Below the pieces are notes generated by a model that did not search any database, had not been told where the DNA came from, and was given only the letters and a program-made list of their open reading frames with translations. Below, one piece after another: positions 4,088 to 64,000 of a stretch of 64,000 nucleotides of DNA (position 1 is its first letter; each line of letters starts with the position of its first letter). The position numbers and the translations under genes were made by a program. The stretch is from assembly GCF_058153355.1 (NCBI RefSeq), contig NZ_CM177019.1; one strand, written 5' to 3'.

Positions 4088-4101
4088 CGCGAGCTCCAGT
4101 A

Positions 4102-7475: not shown

Positions 7476-8123
7476 TTAATTAAGCAAGCCGGGGAAAATC
7501 CCCTTAATACCAGTAACGATAAATTCAATCCCCAATGCCATCAGCAATAGCCCCATAATACGCGTAATCACGTTGATGCCGGTCTGGCGTAAAACCCGTA
7601 CCAGCCACGGTGCCATGCGGAACAATCCCCAGCAACATAAAGCGAACAAAGCAATAGCCACAAAGAAACCAAACAGATAGCTAATGCTGTGATAACGCGT
7701 ACCCCAGACGATGGTAGAACTGATCGCCCCTGGCCCCGCCATCAACGGCAACGCCAACGGCACCACACCAATGCTTTCACGTACCGCGGTTTCTGATTTT
7801 TCTTGCTTGTTCTGTTTATCCTCGCCAAGCTTGCCGCTGATCATCGACATCGCTATTGTCACCACCAGGATGCCACCGGCGATACGGAATGAATCAATTG
7901 ATATACCAAAAAGTTGTAGAATCGTGTCGCCGAGAAAAAGCGAGATCCACAAGATAATGGCCACAGACAGGTTGGCTGTAAGGTTCGTTTTGTTTCGCGC
8001 TGCCGCTGTCTGATAACTGGTCATGCTGATAAAGACGGGAATAATCCCTACCGGGTTGACCAGCGCAAATAACCCGATGAAAAATTTGAAGTAAACGGGA
8101 AAATCAAAAAGGGTCTGAATCAC
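7476..8123 (-). CDS. ychE: MarC-family inner membrane protein YchE
   Basis: 215-aa hydrophobic ORF; position between oppA and adhE. Confidence 0.8.
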   Translation of the reverse strand: MIQTLFDFPVYFKFFIGLFALVNPVGIIPVFISMTSYQTAAARNKTNLTANLSVAIILWISLFLGDTILQLFGISIDSFRIAGGILVVTIAMSMISGKLGEDKQNKQEKSETAVRESIGVVPLALPLMAGPGAISSTIVWGTRYHSISYLFGFFVAIALFALCCWGLFRMAPWLVRVLRQTGINVITRIMGLLLMALGIEFIVTGIKGIFPGLLN

Positions 8124-8599
8124 GGTTAGCTCCGAAGCAAAAGCCGGATAATGTTAGCCATAAATAAGGTTAAAAAGACGCGCTGACAATACGCCTTTTG
8201 ACAGCATTTTTCACCTCCTAACTACTTAAAATTGCTATCATTCGTTATTGTTATCTAGTTGTGCAAAACATGATAATGTAGCCAACAAATCATACTACAA
8301 TTTATTAACTGTTAACTATAATGGCGAAAAGCGATGCTGAAAGGTGTCAGCTTTGCAAAAATTTGATTTGGATCACGTAATCAGTACCCAGAAGTGAGTA
8401 ATCTTGCTTACGCCACCTGGAAGTGACGCATTAGAGATAATAACTCTAATGTTTAAACTCTTTTAGTAAATCACAGTGAGTGTGAGCGCGAGTAAGCTTT
8501 TGATTTTCATCGGTTAAGCAAATCATCACCGCACTGACTATACTCTCGTATTCGAGCAGATGATTTACTAAAAAAGTTTAACATTATCAGGAGAGCATT

Positions 8600-11275
8600 A
8601 TGGCTGTTACTAATGTCGCTGAACTTAACGCACTCGTAGAGCGTGTAAAAAAAGCCCAGCGTGAATATGCCAGTTTCACTCAAGAGCAAGTAGACAAAAT
8701 CTTCCGCGCCGCCGCTCTGGCTGCTGCAGATGCTCGAATCCCACTCGCGAAAATGGCCGTTGCCGAATCCGGCATGGGTATCGTCGAAGATAAAGTGATC
8801 AAAAACCACTTTGCTTCTGAATATATCTACAACGCCTATAAAGATGAAAAAACCTGTGGTGTTCTGTCTGAAGACGACACTTTTGGTACCATCACTATCG
8901 CTGAACCAATCGGTATTATTTGCGGTATCGTTCCGACCACTAACCCGACTTCAACTGCTATCTTCAAATCGCTGATCAGCCTGAAGACCCGTAACGCCAT
9001 TATCTTCTCTCCGCACCCGCGTGCAAAAGATGCAACCAACAAAGCAGCTGATATCGTTCTGCAGGCTGCTATCGCTGCCGGAGCTCCGAAAGATCTGATC
9101 GGCTGGATCGATCAACCTTCGGTTGAACTGTCTAACGCACTGATGCACCACCCAGACATCAACCTGATCCTCGCGACCGGTGGTCCGGGCATGGTTAAAG
9201 CCGCATACAGCTCCGGTAAACCAGCTATCGGTGTAGGCGCGGGTAACACGCCAGTTGTTATCGATGAAACTGCTGATATCAAACGTGCAGTTGCATCTGT
9301 GCTGATGTCCAAAACCTTCGACAACGGCGTAATCTGTGCTTCTGAACAGTCTGTTGTTGTTGTTGACTCTGTTTATGACGCAGTACGTGAACGTTTCGCA
9401 ACCCACGGCGGCTATCTGTTGCAGGGTAAAGAGCTGAAAGCTGTTCAGGATGTTATCCTGAAAAACGGTGCGCTGAACGCGGCTATCGTTGGTCAGCCAG
9501 CCTATAAAATTGCTGAACTGGCAGGCTTCTCTGTACCAGAAAACACCAAGATTCTGATCGGTGAAGTGACCGTTGTTGATGAAAGCGAACCGTTCGCACA
9601 TGAAAAACTGTCCCCAACTCTGGCAATGTACCGCGCTAAAGATTTCGAAGACGCGGTAGAAAAAGCAGAGAAACTGGTAGCTATGGGCGGTATCGGTCAT
9701 ACCTCTTGCCTGTACACTGACCAGGATAACCAACCGGCTCGCGTTTCTTACTTCGGTCAGAAAATGAAAACGGCTCGTATCCTGATTAACACCCCGGCTT
9801 CTCAGGGTGGTATCGGTGACCTGTATAACTTCAAACTCGCACCTTCCCTGACTCTGGGTTGTGGTTCCTGGGGTGGTAACTCCATCTCTGAAAACGTTGG
9901 TCCGAAACACCTGATCAACAAGAAAACCGTTGCTAAGCGAGCTGAAAACATGTTGTGGCACAAACTTCCGAAATCTATCTACTTCCGCCGTGGCTCTCTG
10001 CCAATCGCGCTGGATGAAGTGATTACTGATGGCCACAAACGTGCGCTCATCGTGACTGACCGCTTCCTGTTCAACAATGGTTATGCTGATCAGATCACTT
10101 CCGTACTGAAAGCAGCAGGCGTTGAAACTGAAGTCTTCTTCGAAGTAGAAGCTGACCCGACCCTGAGCATCGTTCGTAAAGGTGCAGAACTGGCAAACTC
10201 CTTCAAACCAGACGTGATTATCGCGCTGGGTGGTGGTTCCCCGATGGACGCCGCGAAGATCATGTGGGTCATGTACGAACATCCAGAAACTCACTTCGAA
10301 GAACTGGCGCTGCGCTTTATGGATATCCGTAAACGTATCTACAAGTTCCCGAAAATGGGCGTGAAAGCGAAAATGATCGCTGTCACCACCACTTCTGGTA
10401 CAGGTTCTGAAGTCACTCCGTTTGCGGTTGTAACTGACGACGCTACTGGTCAGAAATATCCGCTGGCAGACTATGCGCTGACCCCGGATATGGCGATTGT
10501 CGATGCCAACCTGGTTATGGACATGCCGAAGTCCCTGTGTGCTTTCGGTGGTCTGGACGCAGTAACTCACGCCATGGAAGCTTATGTTTCTGTACTGGCA
10601 TCTGAGTTCTCTGATGGTCAGGCACTGCAGGCACTGAAACTGCTGAAAGAATATCTGCCAGCGTCCTACCACGAAGGATCTAAAAATCCGGTAGCGCGTG
10701 AACGTGTTCACAGTGCAGCAACTATCGCGGGTATCGCGTTTGCGAACGCCTTCTTGGGTGTATGTCACTCAATGGCGCACAAACTGGGTTCCCAATTCCA
10801 TATTCCGCACGGTCTGGCAAACGCCCTGCTGATTTGTAACGTTATTCGCTACAACGCGAATGACAACCCGACCAAGCAGACTGCATTCAGCCAGTATGAC
10901 CGTCCGCAGGCTCGCCGTCGTTATGCTGAAATTGCTGACCACCTGGGTCTGAGCGCACCGGGCGACCGTACTGCTGCTAAGATCGAGAAACTGCTGGCAT
11001 GGCTGGAAACGCTGAAAGCTGAACTGGGTATTCCGAAATCTATCCGTGAAGCTGGCGTTCAGGAAGCAGACTTCCTGGCGAATGTGGATAAACTGTCTGA
11101 AGATGCATTCGATGACCAGTGCACCGGCGCTAACCCGCGTTACCCACTGATCTCCGAGCTGAAACAGATTCTGCTGGATACCTACTACGGTCGTGATTAT
11201 GTAGAAGGGGAAACTGCAGCGAAAAAAGAAGCCGCTCCGGCTAAAGCTGAGAAAAAAGCGAAGAAATCCGCTTAA
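8600..11275 (+). CDS. adhE: bifunctional aldehyde/alcohol dehydrogenase AdhE
   Basis: 891-aa [29 protein letters not shown]... with C-terminal iron-containing ADH domain; preceded by RBS AGGAG. Confidence 0.97.
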
Positions 11276-48693: not shown

Positions 48694-49785
48694 ATGGGAT
48701 TCAAATGCGGTATCGTCGGTTTGCCCAACGTCGGGAAATCTACCCTGTTCAACGCGCTGACCAAAGCCGGTATTGAAGCGGCCAACTTTCCATTCTGTAC
48801 CATTGAGCCGAACACAGGCGTCGTACCAATGCCTGACCCTCGCCTGGATCAACTGGCTGAAATCGTAAAACCGCAGCGTACGCTTCCCACGACCATGGAA
48901 TTTGTCGATATCGCCGGTCTGGTAAAAGGCGCATCGAAAGGCGAAGGTCTGGGTAACCAGTTCCTGACCAACATCCGTGAAACCGAAGCGATCGGTCACG
49001 TTGTTCGCTGCTTTGAAAATGACAACATCATTCACGTTTCCGGCAAAGTTAACCCGGCTGATGATATTGAAGTTATCAACACCGAACTGGCGCTGGCAGA
49101 CCTCGACACCTGCGAACGTGCGATTCATCGCGTACAGAAGAAAGCCAAAGGTGGCGATAAAGACGCGAAAGCCGAGCTGGCGGTACTGGAAAAATGCCTG
49201 CCGCAGCTGGAAAACGCAGGTATGCTGCGCGCGCTGGATTTAAGCGCTGAAGAGAAAGCGGCTATTCGTTACCTGAGCTTCCTGACGCTGAAACCAACAA
49301 TGTACATCGCCAACGTCAACGAAGACGGTTTTGAAAACAACCCGTATCTTGACCAGGTGCGTGAAATCGCGGCGAAAGAAGGTTCTGTTGTGGTTCCGGT
49401 TTGTGCTGCTGTTGAAGCAGACATTGCCGAACTGGACGACGAAGAACGTGACGAGTTTATGCAGGAGCTTGGGCTGGAAGAGCCGGGTCTGAACCGCGTG
49501 ATCCGTGCCGGTTATAAGCTGCTGAACCTGCAAACTTACTTCACCGCTGGGGTGAAAGAAGTGCGTGCATGGACCATTCCGGTTGGTGCAACCGCGCCGC
49601 AGGCCGCTGGCAAAATCCATACTGATTTTGAAAAAGGCTTTATCCGCGCACAAACTATTTCGTTCGAAGATTTCATCACTTACAAAGGTGAACAAGGCGC
49701 GAAAGAAGCAGGCAAAATGCGTGCAGAAGGTAAAGATTACATCGTTAAAGATGGCGATGTAATGAACTTCCTGTTCAATGTCTAA
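48694..49785 (+). CDS. ychF: ribosome-binding ATPase YchF (Obg-family)
   Basis: 363-aa ORF with G1 motif GLPNVGKST and C-terminal TGS domain. Confidence 0.95.
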
Positions 49786-49842
49786 TTAATTTGTTGTCTC
49801 ATGAGGTTTCGCTAAATCTCATGAAGAGCGCAAAAGTATATA

Positions 49843-49868
49843 AAATCCACGCAATTGCGTGGATTTTT
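49843..49868 (+). terminator. ychF rho-independent terminator
   Basis: ATCCACGC-AATT-GCGTGGAT hairpin followed by TTTTTC. Confidence 0.55.
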
Positions 49869-50030
49869 CATTTCACCGAGTCCTAACCATTCTTATAACA
49901 TCCTACACTTTTGTGCTTATTGCCTATAGTGAACCACGAGAATAATTAAAGACATAAGTGTTCAGATGAGGGATATCTCATTAGCAATGAGATCACGTAA
50001 GTTTGTGTTCCACTGCACATCAGACACCTT

Positions 50031-50285
50031 TTACAGCTGATCAATATTGATCACGCTCCAATATGCTGGCGAGAAAAGGACTTGCCTGAAGGGCAATATC
50101 CAGCAGATAAAGCCCCCGAATAACGTGATTACGTGCGATCCTGACAAGATGAAAATGATAACCAGTATCACGATAATAACGATATGCCAGAAAATCCATT
50201 GATCAAAAATGAATATCGATGTTTTTTGCTTTTTCTTATTAGTAATGCAAAAATGGCTCATATTGTTTTTGTTATGCAGATACAT
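50031..50285 (-). CDS. hypothetical small membrane protein (84 aa from ATG); doubtful
   Basis: ORF with two predicted hydrophobic helices (WIFWHIVIIVILVIIFILSG, VITLFGGFICWILPF) in an AT-rich intergenic region; no clear Shine-Dalgarno. Confidence 0.2.
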   Translation of the reverse strand: MYLHNKNNMSHFCITNKKKQKTSIFIFDQWIFWHIVIIVILVIIFILSGSHVITLFGGFICWILPFRQVLFSPAYWSVINIDQL

Positions 50286-50629
50286 CAAGCGAAAATCCCA
50301 TAACTAATTAGGATTATTACCAAAAATATTCACCAAATTATTTAAACGCTGTTTGTTGTAATGTTTTTGTCATATTCATAGTAACGAATTGGAATAAGTA
50401 ACGACAACTTAGGGAATAACTCGATCTAAACTCACCTTTGTAAGGGGGATGTTAAATATATATTAATTCATGTGTTCCTGATTTTGCCCGGTAATAGAGA
50501 ATTATTCTCAGAGCAGCTCATCATGATTGCACCATACAAATATCATGATGATAAGAGGATATTATTCATTGACTTAAACAAAATGACAAAATCCATAGAC
50601 CCATAGCCTGGGTACTATATAGGAGTGGT

Positions 50630-53497
50630 ATGGGCATCAAACAACACAATGGGAATACCAAAGCCGATCGTCTCGCTGAATTAAAAATCCGTTCGCCCTC
50701 CATTCAACTGATAAAATATGGCGCTATTGGTTTGAATGCAATTATCTTTTCCCCCCTGCTGATAGCTGCTGATTTAGGAAGTCAAAATGGCACCAATATT
50801 ACTATTAATGATGGTGACAGAATTACAGGAGATACCGCCGATCCATCAGGAAACCTCTATGGTGTAATGACCCCAGCAGGAAACACGCCTGGCAATATCA
50901 ACCTGGGTGATGATGTCACCGTCAATGTCAACGACGCCTCTGGATATGCAAAGGGAATCATTATTCAGGGCAAGAACAGCTCTCTGACAGCTAACCGACT
51001 TACAGTAGATGTTGTTGGTCAAACCTCTGCCATCGGCATTAATTTAATTGGTGACTATACACATGCTGACTTAGGCACAGGCAGCACCATTAAGAGTAAC
51101 GATGACGGCATCATTATTGGGCATAGCTCAACACTAACAGCCTCTCAATTCACCATTGAAAACTCGAACGGTATAGGCCTAACCATCAATGACTATGGCA
51201 CCAGTGTCGATCTTGGAAGCGGTAGTAAAATCAAGACCGATGGAAGTACAGGTGTTTATATCGGTGGTCTCAACGGCAATAACGCCAACGGTGCTGCGCG
51301 TTTTACGGCGACAGACCTGACAATCGATGTTCAGGGCTACAGCGCCATGGGAATAAACGTACAGAAAAACTCTGTTGTCGATCTCGGAACAAACAGTACC
51401 ATTAAAACCAATGGCGATAATGCACACGGCCTCTGGAGCTTTGGCCTGGTGAGCGCGAATGCACTCACTGTTGATGTAACTGGAGCCGCTGCCAATGGCG
51501 TCGAAGTTCGTGGTGGTACAACCACTATCGGTGCTGATAGCCATATTTCTTCCGCGCAGGGCGGTGGCCTCGTAACCAGTGGTTCAGACGCGACAATCAA
51601 TTTTTCTGGCACGGCAGCGCAACGAAACAGCATCTTTTCCAGCGGTTCTTATGGTGCCTCAGCCCAGACGGCAACGGCTGTTATCAACATGCAAAATACC
51701 GATATTACGGTTGATCGTAATGGCAGTCTGGCGCTGGGTTTGTGGGCGCTCAGCGGCGGTAGAATAACCGGAGACAGTTTGGCTATCACCGGCGCGGCAG
51801 GAGCCAGGGGGATTTATGCCATGACCAACAGCCAGATCGATCTCACGAGCGATCTGGTCATTGATATGAGTACACCCGACCAGATGGCCATCGCAACGCA
51901 ACATGACGATGGTTATGCCGCCAGCCGCATCAACGCTTCGGGTCGTATGCTTATCAACGGTAGCGTTCTTTCTAAAGGTGGGCTAATCAATCTGGATATG
52001 CACCCTGGGTCGGTTTGGACAGGTTCTTCCCTCAGCGATAATGTCAATGGCGGGAAACTGGACGTTGCAATGAATAACAGCGTCTGGAACGTAACAAGTA
52101 ATTCTAATCTCGACACGCTGGCGCTGAGCCATTCAACTGTCGATTTTGCCAGCCACGCGTCAACTGCCGGCACATTTACCACATTAAACGTAGAGAACCT
52201 TAGCGGTAACAGTACCTTTATTATGCGTGCTGATGTTGTTGGCGAGGGTAATGGCGTTAATAATAAAGGAGATTTATTGAATATCTGCGGGAGTAGTGCT
52301 GGTAATCACGTATTGGCTATCCGTAACCAGGGCAGCGAGGCCACAACGGGAAATGAAGTTCTGACAGTGGTAAAAACCACTGACGGCGCGGCCTCGTTCA
52401 GCGCGTCTTCTCAGGTTGAGTTGGGGGGATATCTGTATGATGTGCGTAAAAATGGCACTAACTGGGAGCTTTATGCTTCCGGGACAATTCCGGAGCCGAC
52501 TCCTAATCCAGAGCCCACACCAGCTCCCGCTCAGCCCCCCATAGTCAACCCCGATCCTACGCCTGCCCCCGCTCCCACGCCTAAACCCACCACGACCGCA
52601 GATGCTGGCGGCAATTATCTCAATGTCGGTTACTTATTGAACTATGTTGAAAACCGTACGCTGATGCAACGGATGGGTGACCTGCGAAATCAGGGTAAAG
52701 ACGGTAATATCTGGTTGCGCAGTTATGGGGGAAGCCTGGACTCCTTTGCCAGTGGCAAACTGAGCGGCTTTGACATGGGTTACAGCGGTATCCAGTTTGG
52801 TGGGGATAAACGTCTCTCTGATGAAATGCCGTTGTATGTCGGTCTGTATATTGGCTCAACACATGCATCGCCGGACTATAGCGGAGGCGACGGTACCGCA
52901 CGTTCAGACTACATGGGAATGTACGCCAGTTACATGGCACACAACGGTTTTTACAGCGATCTCGTTGTAAAAGCATCGCACCAGAAAAATAGTTTCCACG
53001 TACTGGACAGTCAGAACAACGGCGTTAACGCCAACGGCACTGCGAATGGATTGAGCATCTCCCTGGAAGCCGGGCAGAGGTTCAACCTGACCCCTACTGG
53101 TTATGGGTTCTATATAGAGCCGCAAACCCAGCTCACATACAGCCACCAGAATGGGATGGCTATGAAGGCGAGTAATGGTCTCAATATACATCTGAATCAC
53201 TACGAATCGCTGCTGGGGCGTGCCAGCATGATACTGGGATATGACATCACCGCAGGCAACAGCCAGCTGAATGTCTATGTGAAGACTGGCGCTATCCGCG
53301 AGTTTTCAGGGGATACCGAATATCTGTTGAACAACTCCCGGGAGAAGTACAGTTTCAAAGGTAATGGCTGGAATAACGGCGTGGGAGTCAGTGCACAGTA
53401 TAACAAACAGCACACATTCTATCTCGAAGCGGATTACACGCAGGGTAACCTCTTTGATCAGAAGCAAGTCAACGGAGGATATCGCTTCAGCTTTTAA
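50630..53497 (+). CDS. ycgV: AIDA-I-like autotransporter adhesin YcgV
   Basis: 955-aa ORF with Gly/Thr/Asn-rich beta-helical passenger repeats, Pro-rich linker (PEPTPNPEPTPAPAQPPIVNPDPTPAPAPTPKP) and C-terminal beta-barrel ending in F. Confidence 0.85.
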   Translation: MGIKQHNGNTKADRLAELKIRSPSIQLIKYGAIGLNAIIFSPLLIAADLGSQNGTNITINDGDRITGDTADPSGNLYGVMTPAGNTPGNINLGDDVTVNVNDASGYAKGIIIQGKNSSLTANRLTVDVVGQTSAIGINLIGDYTHADLGTGSTIKSNDDGIIIGHSSTLTASQFTIENSNGIGLTINDYGTSVDLGSGSKIKTDGSTGVYIGGLNGNNANGAARFTATDLTIDVQGYSAMGINVQKNSVVDLGTNSTIKTNGDNAHGLWSFGLVSANALTVDVTGAAANGVEVRGGTTTIGADSHISSAQGGGLVTSGSDATINFSGTAAQRNSIFSSGSYGASAQTATAVINMQNTDITVDRNGSLALGLWALSGGRITGDSLAITGAAGARGIYAMTNSQIDLTSDLVIDMSTPDQMAIATQHDDGYAASRINASGRMLINGSVLSKGGLINLDMHPGSVWTGSSLSDNVNGGKLDVAMNNSVWNVTSNSNLDTLALSHSTVDFASHASTAGTFTTLNVENLSGNSTFIMRADVVGEGNGVNNKGDLLNICGSSAGNHVLAIRNQGSEATTGNEVLTVVKTTDGAASFSASSQVELGGYLYDVRKNGTNWELYASGTIPEPTPNPEPTPAPAQPPIVNPDPTPAPAPTPKPTTTADAGGNYLNVGYLLNYVENRTLMQRMGDLRNQGKDGNIWLRSYGGSLDSFASGKLSGFDMGYSGIQFGGDKRLSDEMPLYVGLYIGSTHASPDYSGGDGTARSDYMGMYASYMAHNGFYSDLVVKASHQKNSFHVLDSQNNGVNANGTANGLSISLEAGQRFNLTPTGYGFYIEPQTQLTYSHQNGMAMKASNGLNIHLNHYESLLGRASMILGYDITAGNSQLNVYVKTGAIREFSGDTEYLLNNSREKYSFKGNGWNNGVGVSAQYNKQHTFYLEADYTQGNLFDQKQVNGGYRFSF

Positions 53498-53596
53498 GTG
53501 CGGGATAGACAAGCCCTTAAACGATGCTGAAAATTGTTAGCGTGCGCCGGAATGAAATACAGATCACTCTGATGTATCAGAAATCGTCTCTGTCTT

Positions 53597-55516
53597 TCAT
53601 ACCCGGCGCTTAAACTGCCCTGCATCAATGCCATGTTGCTTCATTTTCCGCCACAGCGTAGTGCGGCCGATTCCAAGTAAAGCCGACATTTCCTGAATGC
53701 GACCGCCTGTGACCTGGGCTGCGTTAATAATTGCCTCTTTTTCAACTTCCGCAAATGACAGACTGGTGGAAAGGCGAGTGGCGCTGACATCATCTGTCGC
53801 CTGCTCGGTAAACAGATGTTCAGGCAAATCACTGACGCGAATGCGCCCGTTATCACTACTCAGAGCAAGATTCTCGATGACGCTGTAAAGTTCAAAATCG
53901 TTGCCTGGCCATGCACAAGAAACCAGGCGAGCGAGGGCATCGTCATCAATTTTCAGACGCGTAGAGAAGCGTTTTTCAAGACTGCGTAATTTGTTATTCA
54001 CCAGCGCCGGAATGCTGCCACGCCGCATACGCAGAGGCGGGATGGTAATTTCAAATGCATGCAGCGCGTAATACAGCTGGCGACTAAAGCGATTTTGTTC
54101 CACCAGCATTGCCAGGTCCGCGGTCGTTGTGGCAATCACTTTGACATCAATTGGTATTAAACGCCGCGCATCCAGTCGCGTGATAACACCCTGCTTGATA
54201 ACCTGAAGCAAAGCAGACTGTAACTCCACCGCCAGATATTCAATCTTTTCAAGAAACAGCGTGCCGCCGTGCGCCAGTTCCAGTCGACTCAGACGACCAT
54301 TTTCATTGTCCGTGCGATCGCCGCCAATAAATTCTTCCGCCAGCGCCGCATCACCATATAACTCACAATTGACGGCGATGTAGGGACCTGCTGCACGCTC
54401 ACTTTCATTATGAATTGCCTGACTTAGCAGTGCCTTGCCTACGCCCTCTTCGCCACAAAGCAAAACAGGAAAGCTACTACGCGCCGCCTGGCGGCCAAAA
54501 TGAATCAAGCGGCGAGTTTGCGGATCGTCCTGTGGCATATGAGCGAAGGTATGGCTGACTTTTCCCAATTGACTGGTCATCAACTGCCGCATCTGTTCCA
54601 CGGGATGGAGCAACAAAATAAAGCTGGTTCCCTGCGTTTCTATTATCGGTTTAAGGGTTATCACAGCATCAATAAACTGGTGCTGACTTTCAAAGGTTGC
54701 TTCTACGTGTTTGAGCGGATGTGCCTGTTTTATTGCTTGTTGCAATACAGCGGGTAACGTTAAGAGTTCAGTGATCGCCCTTCCCTGACTTGCCGTCGCG
54801 TCAAGGCGCAAGACTCGCGCCGCCTGGGCATTGATAAATTGCAAATTACCCTGCTCGTCCCAGCTAATCACGCCATCGTCCATACTTTCCAGCAAGGCGT
54901 TAAGTTGATTTAAATGTCGGTTTGTTTCAGCCAGTAAATTGTCGGTCAGCAGTAAGTTTCCTACCTCGCGTGCAATTGCCAGCGTCAACGGCAAATCAGC
55001 TGCGGTGGTTTGCTTAACCGGACACGCCAAAGCTATCGTTCCCGTTAATCGGCCCTTGCTGTCAAACAGTGGCGTTGCACAAAATGCCCAATCCCAGAGC
55101 GCCTGTTTGAAATGTTGATCGGCCATCGTTTTCACTGCCTGACCAGAAATAGCCGCTAACGATAGCGCACAGGTACCAATAATTCCCTCTGCGCAATACG
55201 TGCCGTCATTGAATCCCAGGACACTAAGCTGGTGCAGCGTTTGTGGATCACCAAAACGACTAAGGATGCAGGCGGTTTCATCAAGGATGAACAGTCCGCA
55301 CGCCCGCGATTCCATATATTCCCAGGCATCTTCCAGCGCAGCCTGCCCGAGCGTCAGCATCGCTTTCTTACGCCGATAGATAGAAGCAAATGTCACGCCC
55401 TGGGCCTGGTGCGGTACGCTCCATGTCTCCCGTTTCATCAGTTTATTGCATCGCTCCCAGGAGGCTGCAATTAAGGGAGATATGCCCCGTTCATCGTTGT
55501 TAAAAGCGCCACTCAT
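53597..55516 (-). CDS. dhaR: dha operon transcriptional activator DhaR
   Basis: ORF 53597..55597; ATG at 55516 gives 639 aa MSGAFNNDERGISPL...; AAA+ central domain (GEEGVGK) and C-terminal Fis-type HTH. Confidence 0.9.
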   Translation of the reverse strand: MSGAFNNDERGISPLIAASWERCNKLMKRETWSVPHQAQGVTFASIYRRKKAMLTLGQAALEDAWEYMESRACGLFILDETACILSRFGDPQTLHQLSVLGFNDGTYCAEGIIGTCALSLAAISGQAVKTMADQHFKQALWDWAFCATPLFDSKGRLTGTIALACPVKQTTAADLPLTLAIAREVGNLLLTDNLLAETNRHLNQLNALLESMDDGVISWDEQGNLQFINAQAARVLRLDATASQGRAITELLTLPAVLQQAIKQAHPLKHVEATFESQHQFIDAVITLKPIIETQGTSFILLLHPVEQMRQLMTSQLGKVSHTFAHMPQDDPQTRRLIHFGRQAARSSFPVLLCGEEGVGKALLSQAIHNESERAAGPYIAVNCELYGDAALAEEFIGGDRTDNENGRLSRLELAHGGTLFLEKIEYLAVELQSALLQVIKQGVITRLDARRLIPIDVKVIATTTADLAMLVEQNRFSRQLYYALHAFEITIPPLRMRRGSIPALVNNKLRSLEKRFSTRLKIDDDALARLVSCAWPGNDFELYSVIENLALSSDNGRIRVSDLPEHLFTEQATDDVSATRLSTSLSFAEVEKEAIINAAQVTGGRIQEMSALLGIGRTTLWRKMKQHGIDAGQFKRRV

Positions 55517-55603
55517 ATCCCGCATCCTTTGTGACAAAAGGTGTTCCGGCTCGCAATTTTTAGTATTAAAACGCGTAAAAGTTTCAATATGGAACATTCA
55601 TTA

Positions 55604-55628
55604 AAACATATGTTTCACCATGAAACAT
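55604..55628. promoter_or_regulatory. overlapping inverted repeats AAACATATGTTT and ATGTTTCA-CCA-TGAAACAT in the dhaR/dhaK divergent region; candidate DhaR operator
   Basis: perfect palindromes seen directly in sequence between divergent dhaR and dhaKLM. Confidence 0.4.
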
Positions 55629-55743
55629 AATTTGGGCTAATTTTCTTTTCCCTTACCTGATGCACAATGGATTTATCGGCAGTCAGTGGTCGCCGTGTCG
55701 TTGAACATCATCCATGCCCTACCGTAATTGCTGGAGCAAGATA

Positions 55744-56814
55744 ATGAAAAAATTGATCAATGATGTGCAAGACGTTCTGGACGAACAACTGGCGGGTCTG
55801 GCGAAAGCGCATTCATCGCTGACACTGCATCAGGATCCGGTGTATGTCACCCGAGCTGATGCCCCCGTTGCAGGAAAAGTCGCCCTGCTGTCGGGCGGCG
55901 GCAGCGGACACGAACCGATGCACTGCGGTTATATCGGTCAAGGGATGCTTTCGGGAGCCTGTCCGGGCGAAATATTCACCTCACCGACGCCCGATAAAAT
56001 TTTTGAATGCGCCATGCAAGTTGATGGCGGCGAAGGTGTACTGCTGATTATCAAAAATTACACCGGCGATATTCTTAACTTCGAAACAGCAACAGAATTA
56101 CTGCACGATAGCGGCGTAAAAGTGACCACCGTGGTCATTGATGACGACGTTGCAGTAAAAGACAGTCTTTATACCGCTGGGCGGCGCGGCGTTGCCAACA
56201 CCGTATTAATCGAAAAACTCGTAGGCGCAGCGGCAGAACGTGGCGACTCGCTGGAGGCTTGTGCACAACTGGGGCGTAAGTTGAACAATCAGGGCCATTC
56301 TATTGGGATCGCCCTCGGTGCCTGTACCGTTCCTGCCGCGGGAAAACCTTCTTTTACGCTGGCAGATAATGAGATGGAGTTTGGCGTCGGCATTCATGGT
56401 GAGCCAGGTATTGACCGCCGTCCCTTCTCTTCCCTTGATCAAACCGTCGATGAAATGTTCGACACCCTGCTGGAAAATGGCTCATACCATCGCACTTTGC
56501 GTTTCTGGGATTATCAACAAGGCAGCTGGCAGGAAGAATCACAAACCAAACAACCGCTCCAGTCTGGCGATCGGGTGATTGCGCTGGTTAACAATCTTGG
56601 CGCAACTCCGCTTTCTGAGCTGTACGGCGTCTATAACCGCCTGACCACACGTTGCCAGCAAGCGGGATTGACTATCGAGCGTAATTTAATTGGCGCGTAC
56701 TGCACCTCACTGGATATGACCGGTTTCTCAATCACCTTACTGAAAGTTGATGACGAAACGCTGGCACTCTGGGACGCCCCGGTCCACACCCCGGCGCTTA
56801 ACTGGGGTAAATAA
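55744..56814 (+). CDS. dhaK: dihydroxyacetone kinase, dihydroxyacetone-binding subunit DhaK
   Basis: ORF 55714..56814; ATG at 55744 gives 356 aa MKKLINDVQDVLDEQLAGL... Confidence 0.95.
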   Translation: MKKLINDVQDVLDEQLAGLAKAHSSLTLHQDPVYVTRADAPVAGKVALLSGGGSGHEPMHCGYIGQGMLSGACPGEIFTSPTPDKIFECAMQVDGGEGVLLIIKNYTGDILNFETATELLHDSGVKVTTVVIDDDVAVKDSLYTAGRRGVANTVLIEKLVGAAAERGDSLEACAQLGRKLNNQGHSIGIALGACTVPAAGKPSFTLADNEMEFGVGIHGEPGIDRRPFSSLDQTVDEMFDTLLENGSYHRTLRFWDYQQGSWQEESQTKQPLQSGDRVIALVNNLGATPLSELYGVYNRLTTRCQQAGLTIERNLIGAYCTSLDMTGFSITLLKVDDETLALWDAPVHTPALNWGK

Positions 56815-56824
56815 GGAGATAACC

Positions 56825-57457
56825 ATGTCACTGAGCAGAACTCAAATTGTTAACTGGCTCACTCGCTGTGGAGAAATTTTCAGCACCGAGAGCGAGTATC
56901 TTACCGGACTGGATCGCGAAATTGGCGACGCTGACCACGGGCTAAATATGAACCGTGGCTTTAGCAAGGTGGTAGAAAAACTCCCTGCTATCGCAGATAA
57001 AGATATCGGTTTCATTCTCAAGAATACCGGCATGACGCTACTTTCCAGCGTCGGAGGTGCCAGTGGTCCGCTGTTCGGTACCTTCTTTATCCGCGCCGCA
57101 CAGACAACCCAGGCACGGCAAAGCCTGACGCTGGAAGAACTGTATCAGATGTTCCGCGATGGTGTAGACGGCGTAATCAGTCGCGGGAAAGCCGAACCTG
57201 GCGATAAAACCATGTGTGATGTCTGGGTGCCGGTGGTGGAATCGTTACGTCAGTCCAGCGAGCAAAATCTCTCTGTTCCGGTGGCGCTCGAAGCCGCCAG
57301 TAGCGTCGCTGAATCCGCTGCACAAAGTACGATTACGATGCAAGCCCGCAAAGGCCGCGCCAGTTATCTCGGTGAACGCAGTATTGGTCACCAGGATCCC
57401 GGCGCGACCTCCGTGATGTTTATGATGCAAATGCTGGCGTTAGCCGCAAAAGAGTAA
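56825..57457 (+). CDS. dhaL: dihydroxyacetone kinase, ADP-binding subunit DhaL
   Basis: 210-aa product from ATG 56825 MSLSRTQIVNWLTRCGEIF... Confidence 0.93.
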   Translation: MSLSRTQIVNWLTRCGEIFSTESEYLTGLDREIGDADHGLNMNRGFSKVVEKLPAIADKDIGFILKNTGMTLLSSVGGASGPLFGTFFIRAAQTTQARQSLTLEELYQMFRDGVDGVISRGKAEPGDKTMCDVWVPVVESLRQSSEQNLSVPVALEAASSVAESAAQSTITMQARKGRASYLGERSIGHQDPGATSVMFMMQMLALAAKE

Positions 57458-57467
57458 GGAAATGGTG

Positions 57468-58886
57468 ATGGTAAACCTGGTCATAGTTTCACATAGCGCC
57501 CGACTGGGAGAAGGTGTCGGTGAATTAGCCCGTCAGATGTTAATGAGTGATAGCTGTAAAATCGCCATTGCCGCGGGAATTGACGATCCCCAAAATCCCA
57601 TTGGTACCGATGCCGTCAAAGTGATGGAGGCCATCGAGTCCGTTGCCGATGCCGACCATGTGCTGGTGATGATGGATATGGGTAGCGCATTATTGAGTGC
57701 TGAAACTGCACTGGAGTTGCTGGCCCCCGAGATCGCCGCAAAAGTACGTTTGTGTGCGGCACCGTTAGTCGAAGGTACACTGGCAGCAACAGTCAGCGCG
57801 GCCTCGGGAGCAGATATCGACAAAGTTATCTATGACGCCATGCATGCGCTGGAAGCCAAACGTGAACAACTGGGTTTACCGTCCTCCGACACCGAAATCG
57901 CTGACACATGTCCTCCGTACGATGAAGAAGCCCATTCTCTGGCCGTGGTCATTAAAAACCGTAACGGCCTTCATGTACGTCCGGCCTCCCGGCTGGTTTA
58001 TACCTTATCGACATTTAATGCCGATATGTTGCTGGAGAAAAACGGTAAATGCGTCACGCCGGAGAGTATTAACCAGATCGCGCTACTACAAGTCCGCTAT
58101 AACGATACGCTGCGCCTGATTGCGAAAGGGCCAGAAGCTGAAGAGGCGCTGGTTGCTTTCCGTCAGCTGGCTGAAGATAACTTTGGTGAAACGGAAGAAG
58201 TTGCTCCGCCTACTCAGCGGCCCATTCCGCCTGTTTCGGGTAAAGCCTTTTATTATCAACCAGTTTTATGTACGGTACAGGCAAAATCAACTCTGACCGT
58301 GGAAGAAGAACAAGAACGATTACGTCAGGCAATTGACTTCACGTTATTAGATCTGATGACGTTAACAGCGAAAGCAGAAGCGAGCGGGCTTGACGATATT
58401 GCCGCAATCTTTTCTGGTCACCATACACTGTTAGATGATCCAGAACTGCTGGCGGCGGCAAACGAATTTCTTCAGCATGAGCATTGCACAGCAGAATATG
58501 CCTGGCAGCACGTTCTTAAAGAACTAAGCCAGCAATACCAACAACTGGATGATGAATATTTACAGGCTCGCTATATCGATGTGGACGATCTTCTACATCG
58601 CACCCTAATCCACCTGACGCAAACGAAAGAAGAACTCCCGCAATTTAACTCGCCAACCATTTTACTGGCGGAGAACATTTATCCGTCCACGGTTCTGCAA
58701 CTGGATCCGGCGGTTGTAAAAGGGATCTGCCTTAGCACCGGAAGTCTGGTATCCCACAGTGCCCTAATCGCCCACGAACTGGGGATTGGCTGGATTTGCC
58801 AGCAGGGTGAGAAACTGTATGCGATACAACCTGAAGAAACGTTAACGCTGGACGTTAAAACGCAACGTTTCAGCCATCAGGGATAA
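57468..58886 (+). CDS. dhaM: dihydroxyacetone kinase phosphotransfer subunit DhaM (EIIA-HPr-EI fusion)
   Basis: ORF 57462..58886; 472 aa from second ATG; EIIA-Man-like N-terminus, HPr-like middle and EI-like C-terminus. Confidence 0.9.
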   Translation: MVNLVIVSHSARLGEGVGELARQMLMSDSCKIAIAAGIDDPQNPIGTDAVKVMEAIESVADADHVLVMMDMGSALLSAETALELLAPEIAAKVRLCAAPLVEGTLAATVSAASGADIDKVIYDAMHALEAKREQLGLPSSDTEIADTCPPYDEEAHSLAVVIKNRNGLHVRPASRLVYTLSTFNADMLLEKNGKCVTPESINQIALLQVRYNDTLRLIAKGPEAEEALVAFRQLAEDNFGETEEVAPPTQRPIPPVSGKAFYYQPVLCTVQAKSTLTVEEEQERLRQAIDFTLLDLMTLTAKAEASGLDDIAAIFSGHHTLLDDPELLAAANEFLQHEHCTAEYAWQHVLKELSQQYQQLDDEYLQARYIDVDDLLHRTLIHLTQTKEELPQFNSPTILLAENIYPSTVLQLDPAVVKGICLSTGSLVSHSALIAHELGIGWICQQGEKLYAIQPEETLTLDVKTQRFSHQG

Positions 58887-59635
58887 ACCACCGTTCGGAT
58901 GGCATCGTTCTGATGCCATCCGGCAATTTACTCTGCTCTGATATTTTTTAACTACCTGTTATATTTTTTACCAAATCATGATGATTTTTTCTGCGCTAAT
59001 CGCAAACCAAACGTCGCTGGCTGGCTAATAAACAGACGTTATTTAATCACTCTATTTCACCCTTATTTATCCCTTTAATCTCCTTTTCCAAAATGCCTGA
59101 CAGTTCGCAGAATGAGATTTCGATCATGCAGTTAGTGCGATCCTGAACTAAGGTTTTCTGATACTTGAATACCGTTTTGTTCGGTTTCGCCCAAGGAGAA
59201 TGATTGATGAAAGCCACCGCCCCTCCTCGCCCGCAAAAAATAGCGTTAATTCCCGCCTGCGTTTTGTTGTGTTTCGCTGCGCTAGCGGTGCAGGCAGAAG
59301 AAACGCCAGTAACGCCACAGCCGCCTGATATTTTGTTAGGGCCGCTGTTTAACGATGTGCAAAACGCCAAACTTTTTCCGGACCAAAAGACCTTTGCTGA
59401 TGCCGTGCCGAACAGCGATCCGCTAATGATCCTTGCAGATTATCGAATGCAGCAAAACCAGAGCGGCTTTGATCTGCGCCATTTCGTTAACGTCAATTTC
59501 ACTCTGCCGAAAGAGGGAGAGAAATATGTTCCGCCAGAAGGGCAGTCGCTGCGCGAACATATTGACGGACTTTGGCCTGTATTAACGCGTTCTACCGAAA
59601 ACACCGAAAAATGGGATTCTCTGTTACCGCTGCCG

Positions 59636-59643
59636 GAACCTTA
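59636..59643. repeat. IS66-family target-site duplication, left copy (GAACCTTA)
   Basis: same 8-mer flanks the other end at 62113..62120. Confidence 0.85.
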
Positions 59644-59673
59644 GTAAGCGGCTCGCCAGAACCGTATTGATAT

Positions 59674-61245
59674 TTACTGAGAGCTCAGATCAACTTTCCA
59701 GGGCAACAGATCGCGTACCCGGTTTGCCGGCCAGTCCTGGATATGTTCAATGACGTAACGCAGCCACTTTTCTGGCTCCACATTGTTCAGACGGCATGTG
59801 CCGATCAGCGAGTACAACACCGCAGCATGTTCACCACCGCTGTCAGAACCCGCGAAGAGCCAGTTTTTCCGGCCTACGGCCACTCCCCGTAAGGCGTTCT
59901 CTGCGATGTTGTTGTCGATTTCCACCCAGCCATTACTGCAGTACACGTTCAGTGCATCCCACTGTTTCAGCAGGTATGCGAACGCTTTTGCCGTGTCCGA
60001 GTGACGCGACAGTGTTTTCATCTGTTGCTGTATCCAGTCATACAGTGACTGCATCAGTGGCGCGGCTCTGGCTTTTCTTGCCGCCAGACGCTGTTCTGCT
60101 GAACAGCCCCGGACCTCTGCCTCGATGGCATACAGTTCACCGATACGCTGCAGGGCTTCCGTGGTGATGTCGGTGGGCACTCTTGCATGCACATCGTGGA
60201 TTTTTCTCCGGGCATGAGCCATACATGCGGCTTCCGTTATTCTGCCGGATTCGTACAACGCCCGGTAACCACCGTAAGCATCGGCCTGAAGCACTCCGCT
60301 GTAACCGGCCAGATGATTCTGTGGATGGATACCTTTCCGGTCCGGGCTGTACGCGAACCAGACCGCCGGAGGCATTTCCGAACCGGCGTTACGGTCATCA
60401 CGAACGTAGACCCACAGCCGGGCAGTCCTTGTTTTACCGCTGCCCGGCTCCTGGACCGGAACGGGGATATCATCGGCATGGACTTTACCGGGCATCAGCA
60501 CATACTGGCGCAGGATGTCATACAGCGGTTCCAGCAGTTCAGCAACAGCACCTGTCCAGCGCCCCAGTGTGGCACGGCTCAGCTCCACGCCCTGACGACG
60601 GTATATTTCTGACTGGCGGTATAACGGCAGATGGTCTGCATATTTTCCAGCGACAACATGGGCCAGAAGCCCCGCTCCGGCATAACTGCGTGCAATGGGT
60701 TTTGAAGGCACCGGAGCCTGCACGATATGGTCGCACCGGCAACAGGCCAGTTTCGGACGTTGTGTTTCGATAACCTTAAAGGCGCTGCTGATAAGCTCCA
60801 GTTGCTCTGACACATCACATCCCAGAGAACTGAGTTCGCCACCACAGGCCGGGCAGCATTCCTCTTCCGGACGGATGACCCGGGTTTCACGGGGAAGTGA
60901 GGCAGGTAACGGTTTACGGGCTGAAGACTGGCGCAGGGGAGATGGCAGTACCGGGTCATATTGCTCACCCAGCGTTTCCGCCATTTCTTCCTGAAGAGCG
61001 CTGATTCGCTCCTGTGCTTCCTGTATCTGCCGTTCGGTTTTTGCACGAAGTTTTTCTGAGCTTTTACCGAACTGCATGCGCTGCAGTTTTGCAACCAGCG
61101 CCTTCAGCCGGTTGATTTCGGAAGCATAAGCCGCCACCCGCTGTGAGAGCAGGCGGTTGTATTTCGCCATCTGGCGGATGGTGTCCTGTTGCGTCTGCAA
61201 CAGTGCCCGCAGGCGGGCATTCTCATGAGCAAGTGAGGTGTCCAT
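59674..61245 (-). CDS. IS66-family transposase (TnpC/orf3)
   Basis: 523-aa ORF with N-terminal coiled-coil/leucine zipper, CxxC...CxxC zinc-finger-like motif (CCPACGGEL...ACCRCDH) and DDE region. Confidence 0.9.
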
Positions 61246-61264
61246 ATCCTCACTTTACAACGGG

Positions 61265-61612
61265 TTATATGCGGATGCCAGCGCGTTCCGTTCGTTTCGG
61301 GTGTTTCCAGTCGATGCCCTCAAGAAGCATGGATAACTGGGCCGGAGTAAGGTGCACCTTGCCGTCACGGGTGACCGGCCAGACGAAGCGGCCCCGCTCC
61401 AGGCGTCTGGTGAAGAGGCACAGTCCGTCACTGTCAGCCCACAACACTTTTATCTGGTCACCCCGGCGTCCGCGGAAGATGAACAGATGCCCGGAGAACG
61501 GGTCATCCTTCAGGACGTTCTGAACTTTTGAGGCCAGGCCGTTAAAGCCATTTCGCATATCGGTGATACCTGCAACCAGCCAGATACGCGAACCTGCAGG
61601 GAGAGATATCAC
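61265..61612 (-). CDS. IS66 Orf2 (TnpB) accessory protein
   Basis: 115-aa ORF MISLPAGSRIWLVAGITDMRNGFNGLASKV... typical of IS66 orf2. Confidence 0.85.
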   Translation of the reverse strand: MISLPAGSRIWLVAGITDMRNGFNGLASKVQNVLKDDPFSGHLFIFRGRRGDQIKVLWADSDGLCLFTRRLERGRFVWPVTRDGKVHLTPAQLSMLLEGIDWKHPKRTERAGIRI

Positions 61613-62037
61613 CGTCTCAGCTCCTGTATAAGCAAGGACAGCAGATTTTCATTCACTGCCCCGTTCAACCGAAGGGTGCCGTTTCTGAACGTAATCTCAC
61701 AGGAGATGCTGTGTATTTCCGGTGTTACTGACGGTCTTGCGGTCAGTGGCTCATTAGCCGGAGCAGTTGGGAGTTGGGCATCAATAGTGACAGGAATTAA
61801 CTGAGATTCTCTGCCTGATTCTGATGATGGCAATTTTATCTTCCCCTGCCGCCATTTCTGACGCCATTTGAACAACAGATTGGCATTAATACCATTGTCC
61901 AGGGCCAGTCTGGAAATTGAAACACCTGGCTGGAATGATGCTTCTATGAGTCGTTGTTTGAATTCAGGAGGATAATTCAGGCACCCTTTAGGCCTTCCCG
62001 GAGAGGCATTTTTTTGTATATCTGACATTTTTATCAC
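61609..62037 (-). CDS. IS66 Orf1 (TnpA) HTH accessory protein
   Basis: 142-aa ORF; ATGA overlap with orf2 typical of IS66-family translational coupling. Confidence 0.8.
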   Translation of the reverse strand: MIKMSDIQKNASPGRPKGCLNYPPEFKQRLIEASFQPGVSISRLALDNGINANLLFKWRQKWRQGKIKLPSSESGRESQLIPVTIDAQLPTAPANEPLTARPSVTPEIHSISCEITFRNGTLRLNGAVNENLLSLLIQELRR

Positions 62038-62112
62038 CCACTATTAATTTAGTGGTGGATACTTTGTCCAAAGCATCGGGAATTTGCCAGACGGTCCTGA
62101 TAAGACGCTTAC

Positions 62113-62120: not shown

Positions 62121-63710
62121 TGTCGTGCCGGGCGGACGTTTTCGCGAGGTATATTACTGGGACAGTTACTTCACCATGTTAGGGCTTGCCGAAAGCGACC
62201 ACTGGGATAAAGTTGCGGATATGGTGGCCAATTTTGCTCATGAAATAGACACTTACGGGCATATTCCCAACGGCAACCGCAGTTACTATTTAAGCCGCTC
62301 GCAACCGCCCTTCTTTGCCCTGATGGTAGAGTTACTGGCGCAGCATGAAGGCGATGCCGCGTTGAAGCAATACCTGCCGCAAATGCAAAAAGAATATGCT
62401 TACTGGATGGACGGTGTTGAAAACCTGCAAGCCGGACAACAGGAAAAACGCGTTGTCAAACTTCAGGATGGTACCCTTCTCAACCGCTACTGGGACGATC
62501 GCGATACGCCACGACCAGAGTCATGGGTGGAAGATATTGCCACCGCCAAAAGCAATCCGAACCGGCCTGCCACTGAAATTTACCGCGACCTGCGCTCTGC
62601 CGCTGCGTCTGGCTGGGATTTCAGCTCGCGCTGGATGGACAATCCGCAGCAGTTAAACACCTTACGCACCACCAGCATCGTACCGGTCGATCTGAACAGC
62701 TTGATGTTCAAAATGGAAAAAAACCTCGCCCGCGCCAGCAAAGCTGCCGGAGATAACGCGATGGCAAACCAGTACGAAACGCTGGCAAATGCCCGTCAAA
62801 AAGGGATCGAAAAATACCTGTGGAACGATCAACAAGGCTGGTATGCCGATTACGACCTGAAAAGTCATAAAGTGCGCAATCAGTTAACCGCTGCCGCCCT
62901 ATTCCCGCTGTACGTCAATGCGGCAGCGAAAGATCGCGCCAACAAAATGGCAACGGCAACGAAAACACATCTGCTGCAACCCGGCGGCCTGAACACCACG
63001 TCGGTGAAAAGTGGGCAACAATGGGATGCACCAAATGGCTGGGCACCGTTGCAGTGGGTCGCGACGGAAGGATTACAAAACTACGGGCAAAAAGAGGTGG
63101 CGATGGACATTAGCTGGCACTTCCTTACCAATGTTCAGCACACCTATGACCGGGAGAAAAAGCTGGTGGAAAAATATGATGTCAGCACCACCGGAACAGG
63201 GGGCGGCGGTGGCGAATATCCATTACAGGATGGCTTTGGCTGGACCAATGGCGTGACGCTGAAAATGCTGGATTTGATCTGCCCGAAAGAGCAACCGTGT
63301 GACAATGTTCCGGCGACGCGTCCACTCAGTGAATCAACAACACAGCCGCTAAAACAAAAAGAGGCGGAACCTACGCCTTAACTTTACTGTATATCGAGCA
63401 ATGCCATTACGTGCATAAAATTGGCATTGCTCTTTCTTCATCACGAAATACCACTCTTTCTACAGTCTATGCCTTTATTTTCTTTTATTAGGGAAGATTT
63501 TAATTTTATTTTATCAACTTGTTAATCATTACACCTCTATTTATATTTTCCCCCACTCCCCATTCTCCCTGACAATTTTCTTGTGGAACAAAGTGTTATT
63601 TAAGAAACAAGCAAATCATTCTGTCTCTTTAGACAAATTTTGACATCAAACATGATCTTTTTCGCTATATGTGTAAGTATATAGCGGTTTTAATTATCAG
63701 GATATTACTT

Positions 63711-64000
63711 ATGTCACTAACCAGACGGAGGTTTACACAGATTCTTGCGTCGACATTGTTCCTGCATCATCTGCCGTCCTTTGCACAATCAGTCAAATTC
63801 TGGGCCTCACTGACGCTTCCCGAAGCCCAAAACATTACACGCATCGTCAGCGCAGGCGCGCCCGCCGATTTACTATTGCTGGCTGTCGCGCCAGAAAAAA
63901 TGGTCGGTTTTTCCTCTTTTGATTTTGCCCGTCAGGCATTAATTCCATTGCCAGAGCACATTCGCCAGTTCCCCAGGCTGGGACGACTCGCCGGGCGCGC
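63711..64000 (+). CDS. hypothetical secreted protein, N-terminal part (3' end outside window); possibly a periplasmic substrate-binding protein
   Basis: own translation: MSLTRRRFTQILASTLFLHHLPSFAQS... (RRxF twin-arginine-like signal, AxA-like cleavage region) then ITRIVSAGAPADLLLLAVAPEKMVGFSSF resembling cluster-A binding proteins; open to window end. Confidence 0.4.
   Translation, partial: MSLTRRRFTQILASTLFLHHLPSFAQSVKFWASLTLPEAQNITRIVSAGAPADLLLLAVAPEKMVGFSSFDFARQALIPLPEHIRQFPRLGRLAGR

Follow-up and report, generated by a model that had tools for sequence, protein, structure and literature searches.

The closest described counterparts of the locus considered here are two molybdate importers and a gene cluster long listed as an iron-uptake system. 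The locus occupies positions 63382–64000 of a 64,000-nucleotide stretch of DNA (NCBI RefSeq assembly GCF_058153355.1, contig NZ_CM177019.1; hereafter the window, meaning the whole stretch analysed) and begins an operon whose first gene encodes a periplasmic substrate-binding protein. One importer, ModABC of Escherichia coli K-12, is a type I system with the binding protein ModA (SBP_bac_11) and, unlike the operon here, has no outer-membrane receptor. The other, MolBC-A of Haemophilus influenzae (HI1470/HI1471/HI1472), shares with the operon its class III binding protein, FecCD-type permease and ATPase, and its molABC genes are repressed by molybdate through a factor that the authors of that work call unknown (PMC4031551).

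The cluster has been catalogued as prrA-modD-yc73-fepC of uropathogenic CFT073, ‘proposed to be involved in iron uptake’ (PMC1890555, citing Guyer et al. 1998). The same locus is O-island 55 or S-loop 83 of O157:H7 (Z1961–Z1967, ECs1693–ECs1700) and ‘GR9 ymgE..treA’ of extraintestinal pathogenic E. coli (ExPEC) and avian pathogenic E. coli strains (PMC1890555, PMC12928451). These two papers credit its first description to Guyer, Kao & Mobley 1998 and Ye & Xu 2001. The 2026 wording is still ‘possibly mediating iron uptake’ (PMC12928451, citing Ye & Xu 2001), and an O157:H7 comparison names genes of the cluster fbpA, fecD, fepC and modD (PMC8046923). The gene that starts in the window is Z1966/ECs1699. 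In this literature the cluster figures as a putative iron system and as a marker in epidemiology; in our search of it we found no functional study of the cluster, no link to ModE or molybdenum regulation and no ModE-regulated TonB-dependent receptor.

As an annotated accessory gene that about 40% of E. coli carry, the gene itself is thus already known. What we add is evidence that the ‘iron’ label is probably wrong and that the ModE regulon includes this operon. We consider it probable, from the sequence comparisons below, that the operon encodes a TonB-dependent molybdenum acquisition system repressed by molybdate-bound ModE, which would make the ‘iron’ label a likely misnomer.

A ModE-type operator upstream of the operon

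The start of the first gene and the signals that precede it are arranged as follows.

63640–63645, plus strand: −35-like hexamer TTGACA, a putative promoter element whose TTGA core is invariant in 14 aligned upstream regions
63661–63688, no strand assigned: predicted ModE-type operator TTCGCTATATG-TGTAAG-TATATAGCGGT, 28 bp, spanning −50 to −23 from the ATG
63699–63702, plus strand: Shine–Dalgarno sequence AGGA within the conserved block TCAGGAT, 8 nt 5′ of the ATG
63711–63785, plus strand: predicted twin-arginine signal peptide, residues 1–25 (MSLTRRRFTQILASTLFLHHLPSFA), with cleavage probably after the invariant A25
63711–64000, plus strand: periplasmic substrate-binding protein gene, codons 1–96 of 340, first gene of the operon, running off the window

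The E. coli ModE consensus is ATCGNTATATA-N6-TATATANCGAT (PMC545781), and the segment 63661–63688 agrees with it at 17 of the 20 specified positions. When scored in the same way, the experimentally established operator of K-12 modA agrees at 16 of 20 and lies at −45 to −18 from the modA ATG. The two sites thus resemble each other both in architecture (CGnTATAT-N7-TAyATAnCG) and in position, although ModE binding is proven at modA and predicted here. A repeat search returns the palindrome CGCTATAT / ATATAGCG at 63663–63686, and a scan of the 64-kb window for boxes scoring at least 15/20 finds no site other than 63661–63688.

The same element precedes the operon in related bacteria. We fetched 34 orthologous loci from Escherichia, Citrobacter, Yokenella, Symbiopectobacterium, Serratia, Enterobacter, Klebsiella, Raoultella, Affinibrenneria, Erwinia, Pluralibacter and Shewanella. 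Of these, 33 are distinct: the two records for Affinibrenneria salicis (NZ_VYKJ01000001.1; L025 and L026) have mirrored coordinates (147827 + 927302 = scaffold length + 1) and identical results throughout, and are therefore one locus reported twice. A box of at least 15/20 is found within 300 nt upstream of the binding-protein gene in 32 of the 33 distinct loci, mostly at −45 to −60; the box of A. salicis is unusually far upstream (−278). In the 589 kb of sequence that these loci comprise, 36 sites reach this score, of which 33 fall within the 300 nt that precede the binding-protein gene; of the three that remain, two are a short way upstream of the receptor gene of the operon. These second boxes, roughly 40 nt from the receptor gene, score 20/20 in Shewanella fodinae (L034 12738–12765) and 16/20 in Serratia sp. 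H1w (L032 9059–9086), and the receptor would have its own molybdate-responsive promoter in both species.

In an alignment of 14 promoters, the only conserved elements are the box, the upstream TTGA and the Shine–Dalgarno block. The CG and TATAT cores of the box are nearly invariant from Escherichia to Shewanella; the flanks diverge. The hexamer is conserved in the form TTGA(C/T)A, and the left half of the box (TATATG) lies 20 nt downstream of it in the window. A sigma-70 scan reports no canonical promoter beside the operator, and no matching −10 element was found. Given a conserved ModE-type operator at a position like that of modA, we regard membership of the operon in the ModE regulon as likely, and its control by ModE is predicted with the same assurance.

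The binding protein and the genes that follow it

An open reading frame (ORF) extends from 63711 to the end of the window at 64000, with 96 stop-free codons (translation MSLTRRRFTQILASTLFLHHLPSFAQSVKFWASLTLPEAQNITRIVSAGAPADLLLLAVAPEKMVGFSSFDFARQALIPLPEHIRQFPRLGRLAGR). The 619 nucleotides of 63382–64000 are 100% identical to E. coli EC42405, where this frame is an annotated 340-amino-acid protein, and they are present in 2148 of 5426 complete E. coli genomes (around 40%). Residues M1, R5, R6 and A25 are invariant in 17 orthologues with identities down to 49%. The identity with a 340-amino-acid gene in EC42405, the invariant residues and the conserved Shine–Dalgarno block establish that the ORF is genuine and no chance reading frame. 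Because the window holds codons 1–96 only, the remainder of the protein and the downstream genes described below were read from EC42405 and from reference and orthologous loci rather than from this strain.

Several features of the protein are consistent with Tat (twin-arginine) export. The N-terminus T-R-R-R-F-T-Q fits the Tat motif S/T-R-R-x-F-L-K through the phenylalanine, and the L-K part is not kept. The arginine pair (R5, R6) is followed by an h-region and an S-F-A cleavage site containing A25. In an AlphaFold2 model, residues 1–26 have low confidence, as expected of a signal peptide. These observations support the prediction that the protein is Tat-exported.

The family assignment rests on the full-length orthologue, because a Pfam search with the 96-residue fragment alone yields no match. 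The EC42405 protein matches PF01497 (Peripla_BP_2) with an E value of 8e-17 and 61.9 bits (cut-off 27.5). The AlphaFold2 model, built with 17 orthologues (predicted local distance difference test score 86.7), has two lobes and a long connecting helix at residues 162–183, and its top Foldseek matches (4pag, TM0189, MolA, YiuA, BhuT and BtuF) are all class III binding proteins. Sequence and model thus support the prediction that the gene product is a class III (cluster A, Peripla_BP_2) periplasmic binding protein. Its closest solved relative is 4PAG, an uncharacterized ABC (ATP-binding cassette) solute-binding protein from Sulfurospirillum deleyianum, both by sequence (1e-25 with a single sequence, 1.6e-40 with a family profile) and by fold (Foldseek 1.1e-21, template modelling score 0.76–0.80, 26% identity). 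This entry comes from structural genomics, and its deposited name carries no ligand or function, so it gives no help on specificity. E. coli FhuD is a Peripla_BP_2 binding protein that likewise has an arginine-pair signal peptide; it binds ferric hydroxamates and is regulated by Fur. The protein here differs from FhuD in lacking a Fur box and in belonging to another subfamily.

A sequence-only reading of the window had placed an ORF start at 63711 after an AT-rich spacer downstream of treA, the gene for the periplasmic trehalase, and had seen in it a twin-arginine-like signal peptide and a cluster-A binding-protein-like N-terminus. All of this agrees with the present results: the spacer (63382–63710) is 31.3% G+C, whereas the ORF has 53.8% and the window 50.2%; treA lies at 62125–63381; and the signal peptide and the family assignment are those described above. 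The translation opens with MSLTRRRFTQILASTLFLHHLPSFAQS and contains ITRIVSAGAPADLLLLAVAPEKMVGFSSF further on; the two stretches quoted in that reading are both present, but they are not directly consecutive, since 14 residues (VKFWASLTLPEAQN) intervene. The reading had also proposed continuing the sequence beyond 64000 and looking for adjacent permease and ATPase genes. Continuation through the identical EC42405 DNA gives the 340-residue Peripla_BP_2 protein, and genes for a FecCD-type permease and an ATPase follow directly downstream in every reference genome examined and in all orthologous loci that extend far enough.

The operon comprises six genes in the order binding protein, FecCD-type permease, ATPase, S-adenosylmethionine (SAM) methyltransferase, ModD and TonB-dependent receptor. 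In EC42405, Pfam and NCBIfam assign the permease to PF01032 FecCD (2.7e-89) and the next two products to the ABC_tran ATPase and class I methyltransferase domains. ModD, which resembles quinolinate phosphoribosyltransferases, matches TIGR01334 at 3.8e-150 and 499 bits (cut-off 179). Neither the methyltransferase nor ModD has a signal peptide, and both are therefore probably cytoplasmic. The receptor gene is intact in most strains (1971 bp, 656 amino acids); its product has Plug and barrel domains as well as a signal peptide and the TonB box DTLTVW. No curated receptor family accommodates this receptor, and no near relative of solved structure was found for it; searches of ModD, the methyltransferase and the receptor against the PDB found no close characterized relative.

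This gene order is kept in at least 30 loci. Six loci from Shewanella, Erwinia phyllosphaerae and Klebsiella sp. BIGb0407 (L029, L030, L031, L034, L035 and L036) lack modD; the genes for the binding protein, permease, ATPase and methyltransferase are all still there, as is, with the exception of L030, that for the receptor. Because the methyltransferase is retained in these six loci without modD, ModD is dispensable for the conserved core and the methyltransferase is not.

Candidate cargoes of the transporter

Among proteins of solved structure, the best relative of the permease is MolB of H. influenzae (HI1471; 9.4e-65, 222 bits), followed by FhuB (175), HmuU (168) and BtuC (146). MolA (HI1472), which binds molybdate and tungstate, is the fourth-best Foldseek match of the binding protein and the best one with a demonstrated ligand; the entries ranked ahead of it are uncharacterized ones from structural genomics. 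The binding protein is nevertheless not a MolA orthologue, as the two share about 20% identity and align only partially (phmmer E = 1.2e-7). Regulation offers a further parallel, with molybdate repression of MolBC-A (PMC4031551) matched by the predicted ModE operator of the E. coli operon.

ModD accompanies an importer of this type in a Haemophilus-like genome too (L040; GCA_015473185.1, contig BNJV01000294.1), because modD lies there directly upstream of molA-molB-molC, in the order modABC-like, modD, molA, molB, molC. Three transporters stand in tandem at 1414–10700 of this locus: a second Peripla_BP_2/FecCD/ATPase set, the modABC-like set, and modD-molA-molB-molC with a ModA-like SBP_bac_11 gene. 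Unlike the E. coli operon, the mol genes have no methyltransferase or TonB-dependent receptor beside them among the Pfam annotations listed for 8 kb on each side. Frameshifts in either the assembly or the genome split many genes of the locus. Candidate ModE boxes of 14–16/20 precede the first transporter set (1218), modA (4139) and molA (7209), and are ambiguous in such AT-rich DNA. At a Klebsiella MolA-like locus (L043), candidate boxes of 14–16/20 stand at plausible positions, again in AT-rich DNA that leaves them indecisive.

We put the chance that molybdenum is the cargo at even or slightly better. The following model would join these observations. When molybdate is plentiful, ModE–molybdate would bind the operator and shut the promoter, as at modA; when molybdenum is scarce, the operon would be expressed. 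The receptor would then carry a molybdenum species, either molybdate or tungstate or a molybdenum chelate, across the outer membrane. The Tat-exported binding protein would capture this species in the periplasm and pass it on to the importer, a type II ABC system related to MolBC of Haemophilus. More speculatively, the cargo or its ligand may be processed in the cytoplasm by ModD and the methyltransferase. The more specific proposal has a little under an even chance in our estimate: that a ModE-repressed, TonB-dependent pathway for molybdenum (or tungsten) uses the receptor and the MolBC-like importer to scavenge molybdenum species, possibly a molybdenum-catecholate or other chelate over free molybdate, which ModD and the methyltransferase would release or process.

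Several points weigh against the model as a whole. Molybdate is small enough for porins, and it is not clear why a TonB-dependent receptor would be needed; because free molybdate should not require one, a chelated form or very low concentrations are suggested. Proteins 60–70% identical to MolA form a separate family in Klebsiella and Pantoea, and given this and the roughly 20% identity between MolA and the binding protein here, the substrate specificity of MolA is not transferable. Iron chelates, haem and corrinoids are the usual cargoes of the fold family, and YiuA, which was crystallized with iron and a DHB-Arg-Ser catecholate ligand, is among the structural neighbours of the binding protein. 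The best sub-threshold NCBIfam matches of the receptor are siderophore and haem receptor subfamilies. The model also leaves the roles of ModD and the methyltransferase unexplained. Furthermore, ModE binding at 63661–63688 is predicted from sequence alone, and ModE also activates some promoters, so that repression here is suggested only by the position of the operator. Finally, the ModE site may already have been predicted elsewhere (Studholme & Pau 2003; RegPrecise).

A ModE-controlled operon need not carry molybdenum. Its cargo could instead be a molybdenum-free compound, such as a corrinoid-like or tetrapyrrole-like cofactor or a nicotinate-related metabolite, that is processed by the methyltransferase and ModD and needed only when molybdoenzymes fail. 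Two cytoplasmic enzymes in a transport operon do suggest a cargo that is chemically modified, and TonB-dependent receptors usually serve bulky or scarce ligands. The ABC core is of type II (BtuCD-like), with BtuC as the top NCBIfam match of the permease (244.6 bits), and the methyltransferase has the corrinoid-protein-associated methyltransferase CpaM as its top match (43 bits). However, both matches fall far short of their cut-offs (461 and 180, respectively), as does the match of the receptor to BtuB (79 against 600), so no cobalamin equivalog is reached, and the permease is nearer to MolB than to BtuC. An Rfam search of 63200–64000 at E ≤ 1 returned no match, hence no cobalamin or other riboswitch or leader RNA. 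ModD, moreover, is not essential to the pathway, being absent from some Shewanella, Erwinia and Klebsiella loci, and we know of no molybdenum-sparing nutrient of such a kind. We therefore consider a molybdenum-free cargo unlikely.

Uptake of a ferric chelate or siderophore through the TonB-dependent receptor, as databases and the E. coli literature have it, is in our judgement quite unlikely. This assignment draws on a Peripla_BP_2/FecCD family dominated by iron-chelate systems, on YiuA and TM0189 among the structural neighbours, on a siderophore-receptor subfamily as the best NCBIfam match of the receptor, and on the published statements that the cluster is proposed to, or possibly does, mediate iron uptake. 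Those statements (PMC1890555, PMC12928451) come without a cited experiment. The curated iron equivalogs (FecB, FepB and IsdE; FecA, FepA and CirA) all score far below their cut-offs, and no equivalog or subfamily threshold is reached, with FecB at 31.8 bits for the binding protein (cut-off 320) and the siderophore-receptor subfamily at 127 for the receptor (cut-off 223.5). The best Fur-box candidates score 12–13/19 in the window and 9–13/19 in the 33 orthologous promoters, the same as in random 300-nt windows, whereas it is the ModE operator that is conserved. In addition, ModD, a companion of molybdate transporters, is part of the operon. The database name ‘iron ABC transporter’ is thus most likely inherited from the protein family and does not reflect function. 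Likewise, the label ‘siderophore/B12-type’ describes the fold and not the substrate, and the regulatory evidence points to molybdenum rather than iron or B12.

It is very improbable that the palindrome at 63661–63688 is a chance AT-rich inverted repeat or an RNA hairpin, with regulation unrelated to molybdenum. A terminator scan does report an 11-pair stem followed by TTTTAATTAT at 63662–63687, and an AT-rich spacer makes TATA-rich palindromes likelier. Yet the stem has only three G-C pairs, and neither the absence of a second such site from 64 kb nor the concentration of sites at one promoter position among the orthologues is expected of chance repeats. The pattern of variation is also informative. 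Only 13 of 28 sites have complementary bases at the ‘N’ pair of the consensus, and where one arm has an A-to-G change the other arm does not compensate for it, even as the cores stay nearly invariant. Because the variation is base-specific and the mismatches are uncompensated, the box behaves as a protein operator rather than an RNA hairpin.

The treA–ymgE interval and its implications

In K-12 the treA–ymgE interval is about 0.7 kb long and holds ycgY (b1196), and the sequence-only reading had allowed that the ORF might be this gene, or a short strain-specific ORF with no binding-protein fold and no adjacent transporter. This can be dismissed, because ycgY is on the opposite strand and is dissimilar to the island in both nucleotide and protein sequence, and the ORF is the start of a 340-residue Peripla_BP_2 protein with transporter genes next to it in every related genome. 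In blastn and tblastn comparisons of the K-12 interval, including ycgY, with the 5.7–6.8-kb island, only the flanks match. Homology between K-12 and the island returns only about 70 nt before ymgE. On the other side, the last 80 or so nucleotides of treA (window 63300–63381, compared with K-12 L002 5680–5760) are only 76% identical; the C-terminal tails of TreA therefore differ, and the boundary between island and ycgY lies inside the 3′ end of treA and is not intergenic.

Upstream of the operon, the window contains the following features.

59674–61245, minus strand: DDE transposase gene of an IS66-family element
61265–61612, minus strand: TnpB_IS66 gene of the same element
61609–62037, minus strand: tnpA-like gene of the same element
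62125–63381, plus strand: 3′ part of treA (periplasmic trehalase), 1.26 kb, with homology to intact treA from 62113
63396–63432, plus strand: perfect 11-bp inverted repeat (GAGCAATGCCA / TGGCATTGCTC) with a 15-nt loop, followed by TTTCTT, directly past the treA stop codon

The repeat at 63396–63432 is probably the treA terminator, which would part treA from the operon that follows. Its 15-nt loop is unusually big for an intrinsic terminator. The IS66-family element (59644–62112, 2469 bp) lies inside treA and cuts off roughly 430 nt of its 5′ end from the 3′ part. The element has the ends GTAAGCG...CGCTTAC and is flanked by an 8-bp target duplication, GAACCTTA. Because the window at 48905–59643 is collinear with the EC42405 genes ychF-ycgV-dhaR-dhaKLM and the 5′ part of treA, the element is a simple insertion, predicted to inactivate the periplasmic trehalase. 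The same junction between IS66 element and treA was sought in the complete E. coli genomes of the collection, and none has it. The split treA sets this window apart from the CFT073 and O157:H7 locus.

About 40% of E. coli and many other Enterobacterales have the cluster between treA and ymgE. Two copies at this site, one from O157:H7 (L005) and one from strain Z22-2 in which the receptor gene is intact (L004), show 97–99% identity over the island. The treA–cluster–ymgE arrangement is also found in Escherichia albertii, several Citrobacter species and other Enterobacteriaceae, which suggests that the cluster is probably ancestral at this site and that the ycgY state of K-12 is derived. No molybdenum-related neighbour genes were found in the flanks of the cluster in Klebsiella indica and Shewanella fodinae.

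Some strains show decay of the cluster. For example, the receptor gene of EC42405, the closest match to the window, has a deletion of about 1 kb and a frameshift (L001 16786–17759). In the O157:H7 strain examined, an internal stop interrupts the methyltransferase gene (L005 4603–5415) and treA and ycgR are frameshifted, and Shigella flexneri records have truncated binding-protein genes. A 2.5-kb contig of a metagenome-assembled genome labelled ‘Collinsella sp.’ (L006, JAIJJM010000486.1) encodes a binding protein and permease 99% identical to those of E. coli at the protein level, and is almost certainly a binning contaminant.

For 25 years uropathogenic, avian-pathogenic and O157:H7 strains have been listed with this cluster as a putative marker of iron uptake or virulence, yet the cluster carries a deeply conserved ModE-type operator and no Fur box. 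Relative to characterized systems, it couples a MolBC-like importer to a TonB-dependent receptor, ModD and a methyltransferase, and we know of no characterized example of an active outer-membrane route for molybdenum in enterobacteria, nor did our literature search yield one. If a ModE-repressed molybdenum acquisition system is indeed encoded here, thousands of ‘iron ABC transporter’ annotations would be wrong, and an ‘iron’ marker long used for ExPEC and enterohaemorrhagic E. coli would have to be re-labelled. For the ModD family, whose function is not known, there would be a defined genetic setting in which to study it. Enterobacteria would be able to take up molybdenum by a TonB-energized route, and molybdenum limits anaerobic respiration in the inflamed gut and the urinary tract.

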